Of a stretch of DNA of 33,151 nt, positions 10,767-24,564 are shown piece by piece. The first letter of the stretch is position 1, and each line of letters opens with the position of its first letter. Made by a program: the position numbers and the translations under genes. The stretch covers positions 1-33,151 of the forward strand of contig CALBRH010000011.1 of the NCBI GenBank assembly GCA_937899865.1. Reading direction: 5' to 3'. The notes beneath the pieces are model-generated. The model searched no databases. It was not told the origin of the DNA and saw only the letters and a list, made by a program, of their open reading frames with translations. Source of the stretch: an uncultured euryarchaeote. Its GTDB lineage: Archaea; Thermoplasmatota; Poseidoniia; Poseidoniales; Poseidoniaceae.

Positions 10767-10923
10767 GTTCAACGCTTTTGCGCCTCATAAATCAAGTTGC
10801 TTATTACTACCAACAAATATGTCATAAATTGACCTTTTTTTGTCAAACCTTTGGCCATAATAGTTATGTGCTACGCACAAATGGCAGAACTGCCGCATTG
10901 TTATTTTGCGCGGAGGAATCAAA

Positions 10924-13821
10924 ATGTCAGAAGAAGAACCGCCTATGCCCCCTGGATTGCCACCTATGCCACCTATGCCACCTATGCCACCTGCTGATGC
11001 ACCTTTAGATGCACCACCGGCACCGCTAGGTATGCCACCTATGCCACCAATGCCTCCTATGGACGGGCCACCGGCTCCTCCTGAAATGCCACCAATGGAA
11101 GAAGAACATGAGTCTGAGGATTCTTCTGAAGAATCTGCAGAACCAATGATGGATGATGCTCCTACTCCTCCTGAAATGCCACCAATGCCTCCTATGGACG
11201 GGCCACCGGCTCCTCCTGAAATGCCGCCAATGCCTCCAATGGACGGACCACCGGCTCCTCCTGAAATGTCAGCTGCTGACGTACTACTTGCTCCACCGGC
11301 TCCACCTGAGATGCCACCTATGGATGCACCACCTGCGCCTCCTGAAGTTTCTGCTGCCGACCTTTTGTTAGCTCCACCAAGCCCTGCTGAAGAATCTACT
11401 GATGAAGAAGTAGAAACTTCACCTGCTGATTTACTACTTTCTCCAAATGCAGACATACCTGCTGAAGAAAGTGAAGCTGAGCAAGAAAATATGTCACCTG
11501 ATGACTTGTCTGGCGAACAAGCTGGAGCAACAATTAGATCAAGAGATGAGGTAGAAAAGGTACCTGGTGACAAACTTGAAGGAAGCCTACATGAAGTTGA
11601 AACTGCAACACTAACTTCTGATGGAGAAATTGTTAAGCAATCTGTTAAAGGTACTTTGACAATTAATAATCCATCAAGTGATGACAGAATTTACGACATT
11701 GATGTAATCTTAGACAATGCTGAATCAACCGATATCGGTGGAGACCATGTTTCTGTCGATGAACTTGAAGCTGGCAAGAATTACAGCATGAAATATAAGG
11801 TTGAAGGAATGCGATTAATGGCCCTTAGAGAACGCCTTGACACTAATCCTGCAAGATCTCAAGAGCGCTCTTTATCTGTTTCACATGGTGAAGAAGGAGG
11901 CCCAATTGCTCTTGAAATAGAGGTTGAGAATTTATCTTCAGTAAACTTAGAAAACGTTGAAGTTAGTAGACCTATTCCAAGTGAAATTACTTTTGAAAAC
12001 ACTGGAGATGCCACACTTGAAGGAAGTACATTGGCTTGGAATGTTGGTACACTCTCGCCTGGCGAAAAGCAGGTTTTAGCAATAGAAGGAAGAATTGTTG
12101 TAACCGGAACCAAGACTATCAAAGCAGGTTCAGCATCAGCAACTTATACCGCAGATTCAACTCTATCCAATTTGAACTTTAGAGAACTAGATGCATTCTG
12201 CCGAGGATTTACCTACATGAGAGTAAGAGAAGATGAAAGACCAGATAACTGGATTTGTAAAACTATTTTCGAAAACCGCTCATCTTTCGCTGTCGACCTA
12301 GTCAAGTTACAGGTTAGAATGAAAGGTAGCAATGAGTTGCTATTTGATGTTCATGATGTTGAGCAAGATGTACTACCTAACGGGAAGTGGGAATCTGAAG
12401 AAAGAACTGTTGTAGCAACTTCTGAGCCAGATTTCACCTATGACCTATCTTACACAATCCTACCTCATGCTGTAAGATCTACTGAAGGTTCAATGAAGCT
12501 TCAAGAAAGTTCATTTGATGTACTTGAAGCAGATGTCAAAAAGAGTTACTCAACATCTGGATTAAGGTCATACAGAAACCAAAAAGTTGGTGCTTCAATA
12601 ACATTAGCCAATAATGGTTCAGCAACAATCAACCTGATGAGAATCACCGATGATATTCCTGGACTTTTCGATGCACCTGACCTTGAAACAATGAAAATAA
12701 ATGTTGCTGGTAAAGAACTTGACCCGGAACAATACAAAGCAGAAATTAGCAGTGGAATCACTCTTGAGAAAGAGCACAAATCTCCTGATGGGGATGGCCA
12801 TACAATGACCATGACTATTGGAACTAGAGGACCTCTTGGATTAGAACCTGGTAAAGAGATTACAATTAGTTATGATTTGATTGCTCCAGACCCATCTCCT
12901 CAAAATGAGAAGGTAGTTGCACCGCTTAGAGCAGAATTCAGTGCAGAAAGATTCGGACCAGTATGTGGTAGAGATTGTGCTGATGCTCCATCGATTAAGG
13001 TAATTCACAATAGAAGAGATTTCTCCGCTGGTAAGCAAGCAATTCCACTAGGTGGAAAAGGTCGCTATGAAGTATTGATTTTGTTCGAGAACAATGGCGA
13101 TACTGCATTACAGGACATCTATATCAATGATGTAATTCCAACTAATTTTGAAATTAAGGATTGGTATATCAAGGGTGCTAATGGAAAGCGCGATGATTGT
13201 GAAATAACTACCGAAGAAGTTGACTCTGGAACCCAAGCAAGTTGGATGGTCCCAATGGTAGGAAAGGGTGAGAGATTGGAAGTTTGCTTTGAAATCAAAG
13301 GTAATGGTGAAGTTGACGGTGACGTTTTGAATAAGTTCCACGGTGTACACTTTGGAGATGAAATTGAATCTGATGATTTACCTGAAACCATTTCTGAGGA
13401 AGATCCTGTTGAAGAAGCATCCTCCGACGATGATACAACTGATGCCGCAGATGAATCTGAAGATAAACCTAAGGTCACTTGGAGAGAAGATGTTCTATTG
13501 AGAGTAATGGATGCTCATAACATAGATGTAGAGCATAGAGATGCATTTGTTGAGCATGCGGTAAACTTCGATGCAGATGATAATGGATATTTGAAGAAGG
13601 CTGAACTTGAAGATGCTGCTAAGGCATGGAATGAACAGTCTACAGGTGATGATGCTGAAGAAGTTGAAACTGTTGAAGAAGAAGTCGAAGCTGCTGAAGA
13701 AGTCGTAGAAGAACCAAGTGAGGCACCTGAGGGTGGAAAAGCATGCCCAGTATGCCCTACAACATGTGCTGATGATGCTGATACTTGTGCAACCTGCGGA
13801 TTTTCTTTCGCTGACTTGTGA
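10924..13821 (+). CDS. 965-aa multidomain cytoplasmic protein: Pro/Met-rich repeats, putative mu-homology-like domain, about three Ig/DUF11-like domains, EF-hand, C-terminal Zn ribbon
   Basis: Long open frame with SD GGAGG before ATG 10924. No signal peptide or TM seen. Canonical EF-hand loop DADDNGYLKKAE (13570-13605). CPVC...CATC Zn ribbon (13744-13797). The domain calls are motif-based inference. Confidence 0.9.
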   Translation: MSEEEPPMPPGLPPMPPMPPMPPADAPLDAPPAPLGMPPMPPMPPMDGPPAPPEMPPMEEEHESEDSSEESAEPMMDDAPTPPEMPPMPPMDGPPAPPEMPPMPPMDGPPAPPEMSAADVLLAPPAPPEMPPMDAPPAPPEVSAADLLLAPPSPAEESTDEEVETSPADLLLSPNADIPAEESEAEQENMSPDDLSGEQAGATIRSRDEVEKVPGDKLEGSLHEVETATLTSDGEIVKQSVKGTLTINNPSSDDRIYDIDVILDNAESTDIGGDHVSVDELEAGKNYSMKYKVEGMRLMALRERLDTNPARSQERSLSVSHGEEGGPIALEIEVENLSSVNLENVEVSRPIPSEITFENTGDATLEGSTLAWNVGTLSPGEKQVLAIEGRIVVTGTKTIKAGSASATYTADSTLSNLNFRELDAFCRGFTYMRVREDERPDNWICKTIFENRSSFAVDLVKLQVRMKGSNELLFDVHDVEQDVLPNGKWESEERTVVATSEPDFTYDLSYTILPHAVRSTEGSMKLQESSFDVLEADVKKSYSTSGLRSYRNQKVGASITLANNGSATINLMRITDDIPGLFDAPDLETMKINVAGKELDPEQYKAEISSGITLEKEHKSPDGDGHTMTMTIGTRGPLGLEPGKEITISYDLIAPDPSPQNEKVVAPLRAEFSAERFGPVCGRDCADAPSIKVIHNRRDFSAGKQAIPLGGKGRYEVLILFENNGDTALQDIYINDVIPTNFEIKDWYIKGANGKRDDCEITTEEVDSGTQASWMVPMVGKGERLEVCFEIKGNGEVDGDVLNKFHGVHFGDEIESDDLPETISEEDPVEEASSDDDTTDAADESEDKPKVTWREDVLLRVMDAHNIDVEHRDAFVEHAVNFDADDNGYLKKAELEDAAKAWNEQSTGDDAEEVETVEEEVEAAEEVVEEPSEAPEGGKACPVCPTTCADDADTCATCGFSFADL
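10959..10992 (+). repeat. 9-bp tandem repeat GCCACCTAT x3.8 (PPM peptide repeat)
   Basis: Direct reading of the sequence. Confidence 0.9.
11041..11265 (+). repeat. Three copies of a 45-bp coding repeat (MPPMPPMDGPPAPPE)
   Basis: Copies at 11041-11085 and 11176-11220 are identical. The copy at 11221-11265 differs by three synonymous changes. Confidence 0.92.
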
Positions 13822-13827
13822 ACAAAA

Positions 13828-14250
13828 TCACATTGTTGGCAAAGACCAGTTTGGCCAAACCTCGCTTTGAGAATCACTAGATACTATTACGATCACTTGT
13901 CTAGGAATACTAGACAAAAATTGCTCAATTGGAGTAGTAGTTGATGGAGGCATAATTCCGTCCCTAAGATCTACTGCAAGCCAGGCATCTGGATATTGTT
14001 CCATCCAAGCATTTAGTTCAGCCTCAATGCCTTGAGGAGGCACTCCTTGTCTTACGCTCGCCAAAAACTCCCAGCCATTGATACAATGTCTTTCCTCATC
14101 TGTCCACATGAATACTCTTGGCTGATTTGGCAATAATGAGATTTGTTCAATTGCCTCTAACTGTGTTACACAAACCGGCTGAAATGGCATAGGCATCGGT
14201 AGTGGATGTTTCCAATTGGAGTCAACTTCAAGCGGTTCCTTGCGGCGCAT
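13828..14250 (-). CDS. Hypothetical protein (140 aa)
   Basis: Open frame with protein-like composition filling the gap between genes, with GGTGG upstream of the ATG. No family recognised. Confidence 0.72.
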   Translation of the reverse strand: MRRKEPLEVDSNWKHPLPMPMPFQPVCVTQLEAIEQISLLPNQPRVFMWTDEERHCINGWEFLASVRQGVPPQGIEAELNAWMEQYPDAWLAVDLRDGIMPPSTTTPIEQFLSSIPRQVIVIVSSDSQSEVWPNWSLPTM

Positions 14251-14357: not shown

Positions 14358-15284
14358 ATGGCAAACAGTAACACTCCTCCACCTCAGCCGCCTGGTGGTT
14401 CGATGATGATGATGCTAATGGTCATGATTTTGATGACTTTGCTAATTATGAATCCAGGTATTAGGTCAACAATGGGTGGGATAGCTGACCCAATATTATC
14501 ACCGGTTCTACCTGAAGAATCCTTTTTCATCATGACGGTGTTAATACTCGGAACTTTTTCCATGTTGATGAATACGATATTGCGAAGTTTTTTCCTCGAT
14601 CCTATTGAACAGGCTCACATAGGACATCGTCAAGGTCAAATTAGGAGAATGATGAATGATGCAAGGATTTCACGTGACCCAATATTGCAAGAAAAAGCAA
14701 CAATAATGCAACAACAAATGATGCCAGAGCAATTGAAAGTGCAGATGGGTGCAATGAAACCAATGATGTTTACCATGATCATAATTATCGCAGTATTTTC
14801 GTGGTTGACTACAACTGTAGAAACATTTAGAGTTGATTATGTATCTTTACCGTGGGCATCTGAATGGAATCTACTATCTGACAAATTCTTGTTTTTCCCA
14901 GCATGGATTTGTGCCTATATCTGTATGAGTGCCCCTTTTGGCAGAGTTGTAGATAGGCACATTAAGTTGTTCAGATACAGAAGTCATCCAGTAGTTAATT
15001 CGGGAGAAAAACTGAAAGAGCCTTTGCTTCACTTAGTTGCAAACCAAGGGAAATCTGTTGACAAAAACGCTCAAAGAAGAAGACAGAGAAGTAAGTCCCA
15101 ATCAAAGAAAAAGGCTAATTCAAAGAAAACTGAAAAGACCGAGACTACTAAAAATACCAAAAATAAATCAAAAACCTACTCCAGTGTACAAGGACTTACC
15201 TGTCCGGAATGCGGTAGTGACATGATCAGTAAAGCAGGACCACGAAAGAAAAAATGTGATGTTTGCCGGCACCAATGGGTGTGA
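14358..15284 (+). CDS. DUF106 / EMC3-TMCO1 family (archaeal Oxa1-superfamily insertase) with a Lys/Arg-rich tail and C-terminal Zn ribbon
   Basis: TM, coiled coil (QQQMMPEQLKVQ), MKPMMFTMIIII..FSWL, LPW and W..YI.MS pattern. Lies immediately upstream of cmk, the usual archaeal context. Confidence 0.85.
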   Translation: MANSNTPPPQPPGGSMMMMLMVMILMTLLIMNPGIRSTMGGIADPILSPVLPEESFFIMTVLILGTFSMLMNTILRSFFLDPIEQAHIGHRQGQIRRMMNDARISRDPILQEKATIMQQQMMPEQLKVQMGAMKPMMFTMIIIIAVFSWLTTTVETFRVDYVSLPWASEWNLLSDKFLFFPAWICAYICMSAPFGRVVDRHIKLFRYRSHPVVNSGEKLKEPLLHLVANQGKSVDKNAQRRRQRSKSQSKKKANSKKTEKTETTKNTKNKSKTYSSVQGLTCPECGSDMISKAGPRKKKCDVCRHQWV

Positions 15285-23274: not shown

Positions 23275-24564
23275 TCAGTACTCATCATCGTCATATCCCA
23301 TCATATCATCTTGAGATACACTACGATACAAATCAGTGACTTTCTTCTGCTTCAGTGGTTGTTTTTTCTCCTCTGAATCATCATCTTGATTTGGCTTATT
23401 TGGCATTATTGGCTCTAATCCAATGCTTTTACCTGCTGCTTCAGCTACCTCTCGATCTAATTTGGGCACTGCAGGAGCAGGGGCAAGAAAACGATTCTTT
23501 TGGGCTTCGGAACCTTCTATAGAATCATCAGTAGCATAATCTGTCAAGGATTTGATCAATTGTTTATCAGTCTCAGATTTCAACAAGTCAATTGCGATTC
23601 CTCTTAGCACTTCTTCGCCATAAAGTATTGGCAACATATCAATACACGCACGACGAACTGCATTATCCTTAGAAGAAGCACCCTTTAGAATCAATTCTCT
23701 AGCTCTGCCACTATCTTTGTCAAGTGAACGTATGGTCTTTACAGCACTAATTCTTACTTGAGAATCACTATCAGCCAATGCTCTTTCGGAGAAAATTGTC
23801 GCTATCCTAGTATCAATTTTTGCTAACCTTGGCAAAGTCTTAGCAGCAGCACGACGAACCCTTGGGTCATCATCATTCAATGCCCATGAAACTAAATCCC
23901 ATCCAATGTGGCCTGCTTTAACTAATACCTTTCCTAATAACTTAGCACCCTTTAGCCTTAAATTCGCATCTGCTTCCAAAAATAATTCATCTATATGGTC
24001 GCAAGCAACCTCTGGCCATGCCTCACAAAGTAATTCTAAACCTTTGAAAGCAAATTTGCTCCTATTTGGCTCGAATGAACGTAACTCATTATGAATAATA
24101 ATATCAACACCTGATGGAAACACTGGTGCTGAAATTGAAAGTGCCTCGCTAGCTGCTTGACGGACTGATAAATCGTCATCATCAAGTAATACAGAAAGCC
24201 AATCGAATAGTTCATCAGATTTTTGAGTTGCAACCTCTGGAAGTGCTTTGAGAGCAGAGACTCGTACACTTGCCTTGTCATTCTCAAGAGCCATTAACAA
24301 ACTCTTGTGAGCTTCTATAGCCTTTGAACCTTTTATTCTTGTCAAACCAAGAATACCATCTTCTCTGCTCAAATTGTAACTCTTAGAACGCCATGAAACT
24401 TGATAACCTGGAATTTCACCATTAGCTAACGGAATAATATCCAAATCATTAATGGCCAACCAAGGCCCTTCTAAAGTTTCAATAAACTGCTTTTTTGACT
24501 TGGATTTTGTAACATTGAGTGGTTTGCCAGTTCTAGGGTCTCTAGCAATATATTCTCTACTCAT
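23275..24564 (-). CDS. HEAT-repeat (alpha-solenoid) protein
   Basis: Repeated L.D....VR..A...L units (LENDKASVRVSALKAL, LDDDDLSVRQAASEAL, LNDDDPRVRRAAAKTL, LADSDSQVRISAVKTI, SSKDNAVRRACIDML) and an acidic tail. Confidence 0.88.
   Translation of the reverse strand: MSREYIARDPRTGKPLNVTKSKSKKQFIETLEGPWLAINDLDIIPLANGEIPGYQVSWRSKSYNLSREDGILGLTRIKGSKAIEAHKSLLMALENDKASVRVSALKALPEVATQKSDELFDWLSVLLDDDDLSVRQAASEALSISAPVFPSGVDIIIHNELRSFEPNRSKFAFKGLELLCEAWPEVACDHIDELFLEADANLRLKGAKLLGKVLVKAGHIGWDLVSWALNDDDPRVRRAAAKTLPRLAKIDTRIATIFSERALADSDSQVRISAVKTIRSLDKDSGRARELILKGASSKDNAVRRACIDMLPILYGEEVLRGIAIDLLKSETDKQLIKSLTDYATDDSIEGSEAQKNRFLAPAPAVPKLDREVAEAAGKSIGLEPIMPNKPNQDDDSEEKKQPLKQKKVTDLYRSVSQDDMMGYDDDEY

Follow-up and report, generated by a model that had tools for sequence, protein, structure and literature searches.

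Do marine archaea outside the Asgard group encode a mu-homology domain (MHD), the cargo- and accessory-binding module of clathrin adaptors, COPI and muniscins? The question is raised by a gene on contig CALBRH010000011.1 (assembly GCA_937899865.1) of an uncultured member of the Poseidoniaceae (Poseidoniales, Thermoplasmatota), of which positions 1 to 33,151, a stretch of 33,151 nucleotides, were analyzed (the window). An initial annotation had placed four motifs, in a fixed order, within 11575-12200 and interpreted them as a mu-homology-like domain at residues 218-425. Translation in frame 1 recovered all four in that order and inside one gene, and the residue numbers proved to count from the ATG at 10924. 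The list of open reading frames (ORFs) gives the gene as 10906-13821 from a TTG six codons upstream of this ATG; because homologues begin MSEEEPPMPP, we regard the ATG as the real start. The resulting protein of 965 amino acids (aa) is very acidic by composition (net charge about -126) and comprises, from N to C terminus, a Pro/Met/acidic arm, a folded core of ~610 aa and an acidic tail with a zinc ribbon. In our assessment, it is probably the Poseidoniales representative of a family of soluble archaeal proteins built from several sandwiches, with a first module of MHD fold and a non-coat role in the cytoplasm. The gene and its folded core are laid out as follows:

10924..13821, + strand: whole gene, ATG start, stop codon counted in; 965 aa
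11560..12297, + strand: mu-homology-like module, aa 213-458, two beta sandwiches
11560..11847, + strand: first sandwich (subdomain A-like, six strands; DSSP model strands 21-108), signature N-x-S-x-x-D-R-I-[WY]-D
11590-11664, + strand: motif 1 (translation)
11770-11802, + strand: motif 2 (translation)
11890..12171, + strand: second sandwich (subdomain B-like), a DUF11 domain by sequence
11941-11982, + strand: motif 3 (translation)
12031-12054, + strand: conserved Trp segment after motif 3 (translation)
12157-12198, + strand: motif 4 (translation)
12205..12288, + strand: two post-DUF11 strands (DSSP model strands 230-238 and 245-253), signature P-D-x-W-x-C-x-x-x-F-E-N-x-S-x-F
12298..13389, + strand: three further Ig-like sandwiches in the model (~aa 459-528, 532-695 and 695-822), the last two DUF11/TIGR01451-like

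Fold and sequence of the first module

The fold was predicted with AlphaFold2 for aa 199-474, using a 55-sequence family alignment. The model was all-beta with 16 strands and of high confidence (predicted local distance difference test (pLDDT) 92.1, predicted template modelling (TM) score 0.80). A Foldseek search against the PDB placed AP-2 mu2 on top (E 5e-8, TM 0.56-0.62, ~247 columns), followed by delta-COP, mu4, mu3 and mu1; the top matches were MHDs only, and the best non-MHD structures covered one sandwich of ~100 residues. Structure prediction followed by structure search had been named beforehand as the check on the MHD proposal, and across three such searches the best matches were indeed MHDs, each covering both sandwiches (AP-1/2/3/4 mu, delta-COP, SGIP1, Syp1 and FCHo1). 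All two-sandwich matches of low root-mean-square deviation (~200 residues, 3 Å) were MHDs from four separate MHD families, and the predicted module superposed on solved MHDs as one all-beta unit of two sandwiches, at an identity of 11-18%. With about 245 aa, it is larger than the ~210 aa estimated at the outset. The confident model (pLDDT 92) and the MHD-first ranking of its matches support a mu-homology-like domain, and we consider an MHD-like fold of the first module very probable on this basis.

As an internal control, aa 434-824 were modelled as well (pLDDT 92.8). Here, the best matches were pilins, adhesins and integrin legs, and MHDs matched the last DUF11-like sandwich only, over 110 residues. 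Since the other sandwiches of the same protein lack two-sandwich MHD matches, the arrangement predicted for the first module is specifically MHD-like. We also considered the C-terminal sandwiches as a possible adaptin ear or appendage. AP3B1_C matches in two relatives remained below cut-off (E 4e-4 and 3.5e-3) and a gamma-ear match had an E value of 0.22; with pilins and integrins returned by the fold search, this candidate was rejected as generic cross-matching between sandwiches.

In the mu2 structure, the second sandwich is inserted into the first and the C-terminal strands return to it, a hallmark of MHDs. Structural alignments to mu1, mu2 and mu3 extend to model residue 256-261 and thereby take in the two post-DUF11 strands, and those to mu4, SGIP1 and Syp1 end at 225-231, though they reach the C-terminal strands of their targets. 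These strands are well conserved in the family alignment (P, W, N, S and F near-invariant), as are the E, G, N, S, R, Y and E columns of the first sandwich, which are invariant or near-invariant.

Complementarily, we compared the sequences. By sequence alone, the resemblance is marginal. The initial annotation had placed its motif patterns in register with AP-2 mu2 and delta-COP; the printed HMMER alignment against AP-2 mu2 bears this out for motifs 1, 3 and 4, whereas motif 2 does not appear in it. A family profile scored 16 bits against mu2 over motifs 3-4 and 4 bits over motif 1, and when it was run against all PDB sequences the 25 best matches were AP-2, AP-3 and AP-4 mu and delta-COP (best E 3e-4). 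The whole protein against the same sequences gave weak EF-hand matches alone (E 0.4 and above). In Pfam, DUF11 (PF01345) was the sole family above its cut-off (46.5 bits versus 24.6, E 5.5e-12; aa 329-422, numbered from the listed TTG start), in line with a TIGR01451 match of 29.4 bits (cut-off 24). Adap_comp_sub (PF00928), the Pfam family of the MHD, scored 19-20.3 bits on the window protein (E 4e-4 to 1e-3) and 16.8 bits when the genome was scanned; the alignment runs across both sandwiches, from profile position 24 to 236 of 259. Among the 55 aligned family members, 24 matched PF00928 at E 0.01 or better (best 1.9e-10); when ten members were rescanned one by one, two exceeded its cut-off (34.9 and 35.2 bits), on the DUF11-like half only. 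An LppM match stayed below cut-off (E 0.0025-0.0047), and the post-DUF11 segment alone gave no MHD match in Pfam. Together, model and sequence suggest a resemblance between the second MHD sandwich and DUF11-type domains.

Family, distribution and expression

An exhaustive phmmer search returned 831 relatives in two classes, namely proteins of ~600-1100 aa that match the entire 250-aa module and giant DUF11 repeat proteins that match its second half only. The 55-sequence alignment holds members of the first class; it is conserved over about 600 columns and carries the signatures N-x-S-x-x-D-R-I-W-D in the first sandwich and P-D-x-W-x-C-x-x-x-F-E-N-x-S-x-F after the second. Among Marine Group II sequences, conservation is about the same in all four core domains, and arm and tail are variable. 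The host is non-Asgard, as had been supposed: close homologues are named Candidatus Poseidoniaceae and Thalassarchaeaceae. The module was present in 108 of 121 sampled Poseidoniales genomes (52/56 of those of high quality) and in 19 of 21 genera. Elsewhere in the Thermoplasmatota, full-module matches were found in all 15 genomes of one family and in three further families (26-30% identity, proteins of ~670-710 aa); most other Thermoplasmatota families gave no match with this query. The source records assign two family members, P0061 and P0293, to Flavobacteriales and Deltaproteobacteria; both lie on short partial contigs. These assignments are probably binning errors, because the sequences are 76% identical to the query or fall inside a 90%-identity cluster of archaeal copies.

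The representatives that carry names are Asgard archaea (Njordarchaeales, Promethearchaeota, Sigynarchaeum and Sifarchaeia; phmmer E 6e-18 to 1e-13). Asgard homologues of all AP-complex domains, including the mu C-terminal domain, have been reported as "sparsely distributed" and not fused to one another (Eme et al. 2023, Nature 618:992, PMC10307638), so that prokaryotic MHD relatives were correctly described at the outset as discussed mainly for Asgard archaea. Supplementary Table 3 of that study lists 44 Adap_comp_sub occurrences, and its first entry (Jordarchaeia) carries both family signatures. The reference taxa used there include Marine Group II genomes, and the candidate table names Asgard proteins only; our literature searches found no report of an MHD outside Asgard archaea and eukaryotes. 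A public Marine Group II genome has probably contained the gene for years with no MHD-like annotation. The Asgard family is thus already known, and the window protein almost certainly belongs to it.

In a quick maximum-likelihood tree, Marine Group II formed one well-supported clade on a long stem and the other Thermoplasmatota another, and Asgard sequences fell into several clades on an unresolved backbone. A tree constrained to hold all Thermoplasmatota together, a group defined partly after the first tree was seen, was not rejected and scored better than the free-search tree (p-AU 0.68). Both vertical descent and transfer therefore stay compatible with the data. Finally, contigs from marine metatranscriptomes of two studies cover the gene at 95-100% identity. 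These contigs are consistent with its expression; they lack strand, start and level, and carry-over of DNA is possible.

Arm, tail and genomic setting

Beyond the core, the following elements of the gene and its surroundings bear on function:

10930..11520, + strand: disordered Pro/Met/acidic arm by composition, 33% Pro, PPMPPM-D/E-APPAPPE units
11263-11298, 11344-11379 and 11413-11445, + strand: three short A-D-[LV]-L-L-(A-P-P) motifs (sequence)
13390..13818, + strand: acidic tail, with elements conserved in Marine Group II homologues
13480-13638, + strand: conserved helical segment of the tail (sequence)
13570-13605, + strand: canonical-looking EF-hand-type loop in the helical segment (Pfam EF-hand_7 at E 0.036 only)
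13744-13797, + strand: C-terminal CxxC...CxxC zinc ribbon with four cysteines (Pfam UPF0547 zinc ribbon, E 0.2)
13828-14250, - strand: 140-aa ORF, convergent with the MHD-like gene, no Pfam family
14358-15284, + strand: EMC3/TMCO1 (DUF106)-type insertase homologue, two genes downstream
23275-24564, - strand: HEAT-repeat protein of 429 aa (Adaptin_N 22 bits), about 9.5 kb from the MHD-like gene

The arm is encoded by tandem repeats of 9, 45 and 81 bp, whose number differs among homologues, and a Pfam scan of it returned no family. Diverged Marine Group II homologues carry related arm motifs (ADLLLAPP, ADALLAPP, ADPLLAPP and ADDLLAP). The Marine Group II form is set apart by its arm with AD-x-LL-APP motifs, its EF-hand-like segment and its zinc ribbon; this motif type, the segment and the ribbon are retained in most homologues from the group that we examined. 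A complex prediction of aa 199-965 against the protein's own arm with its three AD-x-LL motifs scored 0.00; controls were not run, and the result is uninformative either way. Among possible arm receptors, Profilin, SH3_1 and WW had no match in the genome, a result that is uninformative as the Profilin and WW controls were silent and the SH3_1 control was weak (matches in 2 genomes, below cut-off). The Actin model matched two proteins of 344 and 359 aa unspecifically, as it also matched 7/14 control genomes, all of them bacteria.

Several side observations concern the arm. A Gly/Ser-rich ORF of 262 aa opposite to it (10785-11573, - strand) reflects its proline codons read antisense and very likely does not represent a gene. 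Of the 108 genomes with a match, at least 18 have the start of the folded-module alignment no more than a few hundred bases from the end of a contig (G080:C26:102, G048:C6:568 and G064:C11:157, for instance). The Pro-rich repeats seem to break assemblies, and database copies are therefore often N-terminally truncated and their lengths (755-1143 aa) unreliable. One metatranscriptome contig (run X1) lacks 57 bases of the arm (window 11235-11293), with a few letters replaced, which looks like strain variation in repeat number rather than processing.

The Poseidoniales gene belongs to a housekeeping block that is conserved across the two main families of the order and reads UbiA-type prenyltransferase, ornithine carbamoyltransferase, GPN-loop GTPase, MHD-like gene, 140-aa protein, EMC3/TMCO1-type insertase, cytidylate kinase and Cbf5. 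The 140-aa protein was found in 4/7 Poseidoniales loci examined, all from the window's own family. In other Thermoplasmatota, the MHD-like gene divergently adjoins an NFACT/Rqc2-type ribosome-quality-control gene at all seven loci examined, from two families (L021:5722-7854, - strand; L023:9545-11575, + strand; equivalent position in L022 and L024-L027). The two settings have no neighbour genes in common, and neither points to a dedicated partner. As to the locus itself, the insertase homologue likewise has a CxxC...CxxC zinc ribbon at its C terminus, besides a Lys-rich tail; the window has a G+C content of 38%, versus 47-62% in syntenic loci of the same genus and order (L014-L020), and the spread in base composition is large inside one GTDB genus.

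We further searched the genome, which is 91% complete, for parts of a coat. No Arf match above E 0.01 was found, with a control that was positive in 13/14 genomes, and there was no match for Clathrin. The absence of a match for Clat_adaptor_s (PF01217) is uninformative, as its control matched nowhere. On the MHD-like protein itself, an N-terminal longin-type domain (PF01217) is absent, the N terminus being the Pro-rich arm without a Pfam family. The only Adaptin_N signal in the genome came from the HEAT-repeat protein (15-22 bits versus a cut-off of 37 bits) and looks like generic HEAT similarity. With no longin domain and with large and small adaptor subunits as well as Arf not found, the protein does not look like an AP- or COPI-type coat subunit, and the MHD-like fold by itself carries no information on coat function.

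Competing readings and relation to known systems

Several observations weigh against an MHD in a cytoplasmic, non-coat role. The PF00928 score of the window protein (~20 bits) lies below the Pfam cut-off of 31.6 bits, the first sandwich alone matches neither PF00928 nor any other Pfam family, and nearly all PF00928 matches in relatives span only profile positions ~114-229, the same residues as DUF11. Moreover, one of five ordinary giant DUF11 proteins scanned (P0147, 2426 aa, 15 repeats) matched PF00928 with 57.9 bits, exceeding the cut-off, at profile positions 130-194. The Pfam MHD model thus partly recognizes DUF11-type sandwiches in general, and sequence alone therefore cannot tell an MHD from DUF11 plus something else: either MHDs have a DUF11-type domain as their second sandwich or the PF00928 model is leaky. 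The return of the chain to the first sandwich, in turn, was judged by alignment ranges alone, and these differ among targets.

The principal alternative is that the protein is a string of ordinary Ig-like/DUF11 sandwiches, whose MHD likeness reflects a common arrangement or convergence without kinship to adaptors. DUF11 as the sole family above cut-off, the PF00928 cross-match to a generic DUF11 giant, the silent first sandwich and the identity to solved MHDs of just 11-18% all speak for it, as does the finding that the nearest language-model clusters are DUF11 archaeal proteins (0.93-0.98), with eukaryotic Adap_comp_sub clusters, a lead only, at 0.79. Yet the PDB holds no tandem-Ig protein that matches the two sandwiches jointly, the low-rmsd two-sandwich matches are all MHDs and come from four separate families, the other sandwiches of the protein behave differently, and the PF00928 alignment of the window protein spans both sandwiches. 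On this balance we regard the alternative as unlikely, if the most serious one, and slightly favour common ancestry of the module with eukaryotic MHDs. Much less probable is a working proto-adaptor, in which the module would select membrane cargo or bind lipid and the arm would recruit coat or remodelling machinery, as part of a simple trafficking or membrane-sorting system in Marine Group II. The predicted MHD fold and the neighbouring EMC3/TMCO1-type insertase gene fit such a role, a disordered Pro-rich region beside an MHD recalls muniscins, and the leucine pairs of the arm recall clathrin-box and dileucine ligands. Against this stand the missing Arf (with a working control) and Clathrin matches, the generic HEAT protein as the only Adaptin_N signal, the lack of a longin domain, a strong acidity that disfavours binding of acidic lipids and a neighbourhood that is a housekeeping block kept across the order. 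Least credible of all is the context in which DUF11 repeats usually occur, namely an adhesin that is secreted or displayed at the surface. The DUF11/TIGR01451 domains, the pilin- and adhesin-like folds predicted in the C-terminal half and other CARDB surface proteins in the same window would suit it, but no signal peptide, membrane segment or sorting signal was found in the 965-aa protein (highest 19-residue Kyte-Doolittle mean 0.76), short-form relatives likewise begin without signal peptides, and the window protein has an EF-hand-like segment and ends in a cysteine zinc ribbon.

We return to the cytoplasmic, non-coat multi-sandwich protein, for which a motif-binding interaction scaffold is a tentative suggestion drawn from fold and architecture. 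A rigid MHD-like platform and the three Ig-like domains would bind partner proteins or, by analogy with eukaryotic MHDs, short peptide motifs. The long, flexible Pro-rich arm would display several AD-x-LL-APP motifs to a putative receptor, the EF-hand-like segment and zinc ribbon might provide a further, possibly regulated attachment point, and multivalent arm and zinc-ribbon tail together could tether other components.

To date, archaeal MHD look-alikes have been published for Asgard archaea only, as a candidate table, and cited in favour of an Asgard origin for parts of the trafficking machinery. Here, the same family turns up as a core gene of nearly all Poseidoniales, apparently expressed, and it also occurs in at least one further family of the Thermoplasmatota; no other adaptor parts were found. 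This occurrence weakens the inference that the presence of an MHD implies a proto-coat, and given the distribution one may ask if the family dates far back in archaea or spread by transfer. Domain surveys, too, call for caution: since PF00928 cross-matches DUF11 repeats, Pfam-only surveys of prokaryotic MHDs can give false positives, and structure is needed beside sequence matches. A more speculative and rather unlikely extension holds that the MHD originated within archaea when a DUF11-type sandwich was joined to a second one in a cytosolic scaffold, itself older than the Asgard lineage or freely spread beyond it. If so, the MHD would not be an invention of Asgard archaea plus eukaryotes and its status as a 'eukaryotic signature' would need re-dating; Marine Group II would offer a coat-free setting for learning the domain's ancestral job; and the scaffold would be a core protein of one of the surface ocean's most abundant archaeal groups and of a second Thermoplasmatota family.

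Among known systems, the Asgard Adap_comp_sub candidates (Eme et al. 2023, PMC10307638) are closest, as the MHD-like module and the three sandwiches align end to end and the signatures N-x-S-x-x-[DN]-R-I-W and P-x-x-W-x-C-x-x-x-F-x-N-x-S-x-F are shared. In contrast to these candidates, the window protein stems from Poseidoniales within the Thermoplasmatota, and the Marine Group II form is extended by a polyproline arm of 150-400 aa, an acidic EF-hand-like tail and a zinc ribbon, where many Asgard forms instead have an N-terminal domain of ~100 aa that is helical-looking by sequence. Identity to AP-2 mu2 (PDB 5WRK, 2PR9 and 1BW8), mu1, mu3, mu4 and delta-COP amounts to 11-15%. Unlike these subunits, the window protein has no N-terminal longin domain, partner subunits were not found in its genome, and the chain continues past the module with three more sandwiches instead of ending there. 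At F174 and D176, which we take to be residues of the tyrosine-motif pocket of mu2, the window protein has E and S in a HMMER alignment too weak to rely on. It differs from the muniscins (FCHo1/2, SGIP1 and yeast Syp1) in that it carries no F-BAR or membrane-binding domain, its disordered arm is N-terminal and its MHD is not at the C-terminal end. With DUF11/TIGR01451 repeat proteins (PF01345), it shares the DUF11 character of its second and later sandwiches, and the DUF11 part of the module matches repeats of giant surface proteins. The usual context of such repeats is secreted or surface-exposed, as marked by a signal peptide, an anchor and many tandem repeats; the window protein has no export signal, an acidic Pro-rich N terminus and a zinc-ribbon C terminus, and it pairs one DUF11 copy with a distinct first sandwich to form an MHD-like unit, a module of ~250 aa that is conserved as a whole in proteins of 600-1100 aa.

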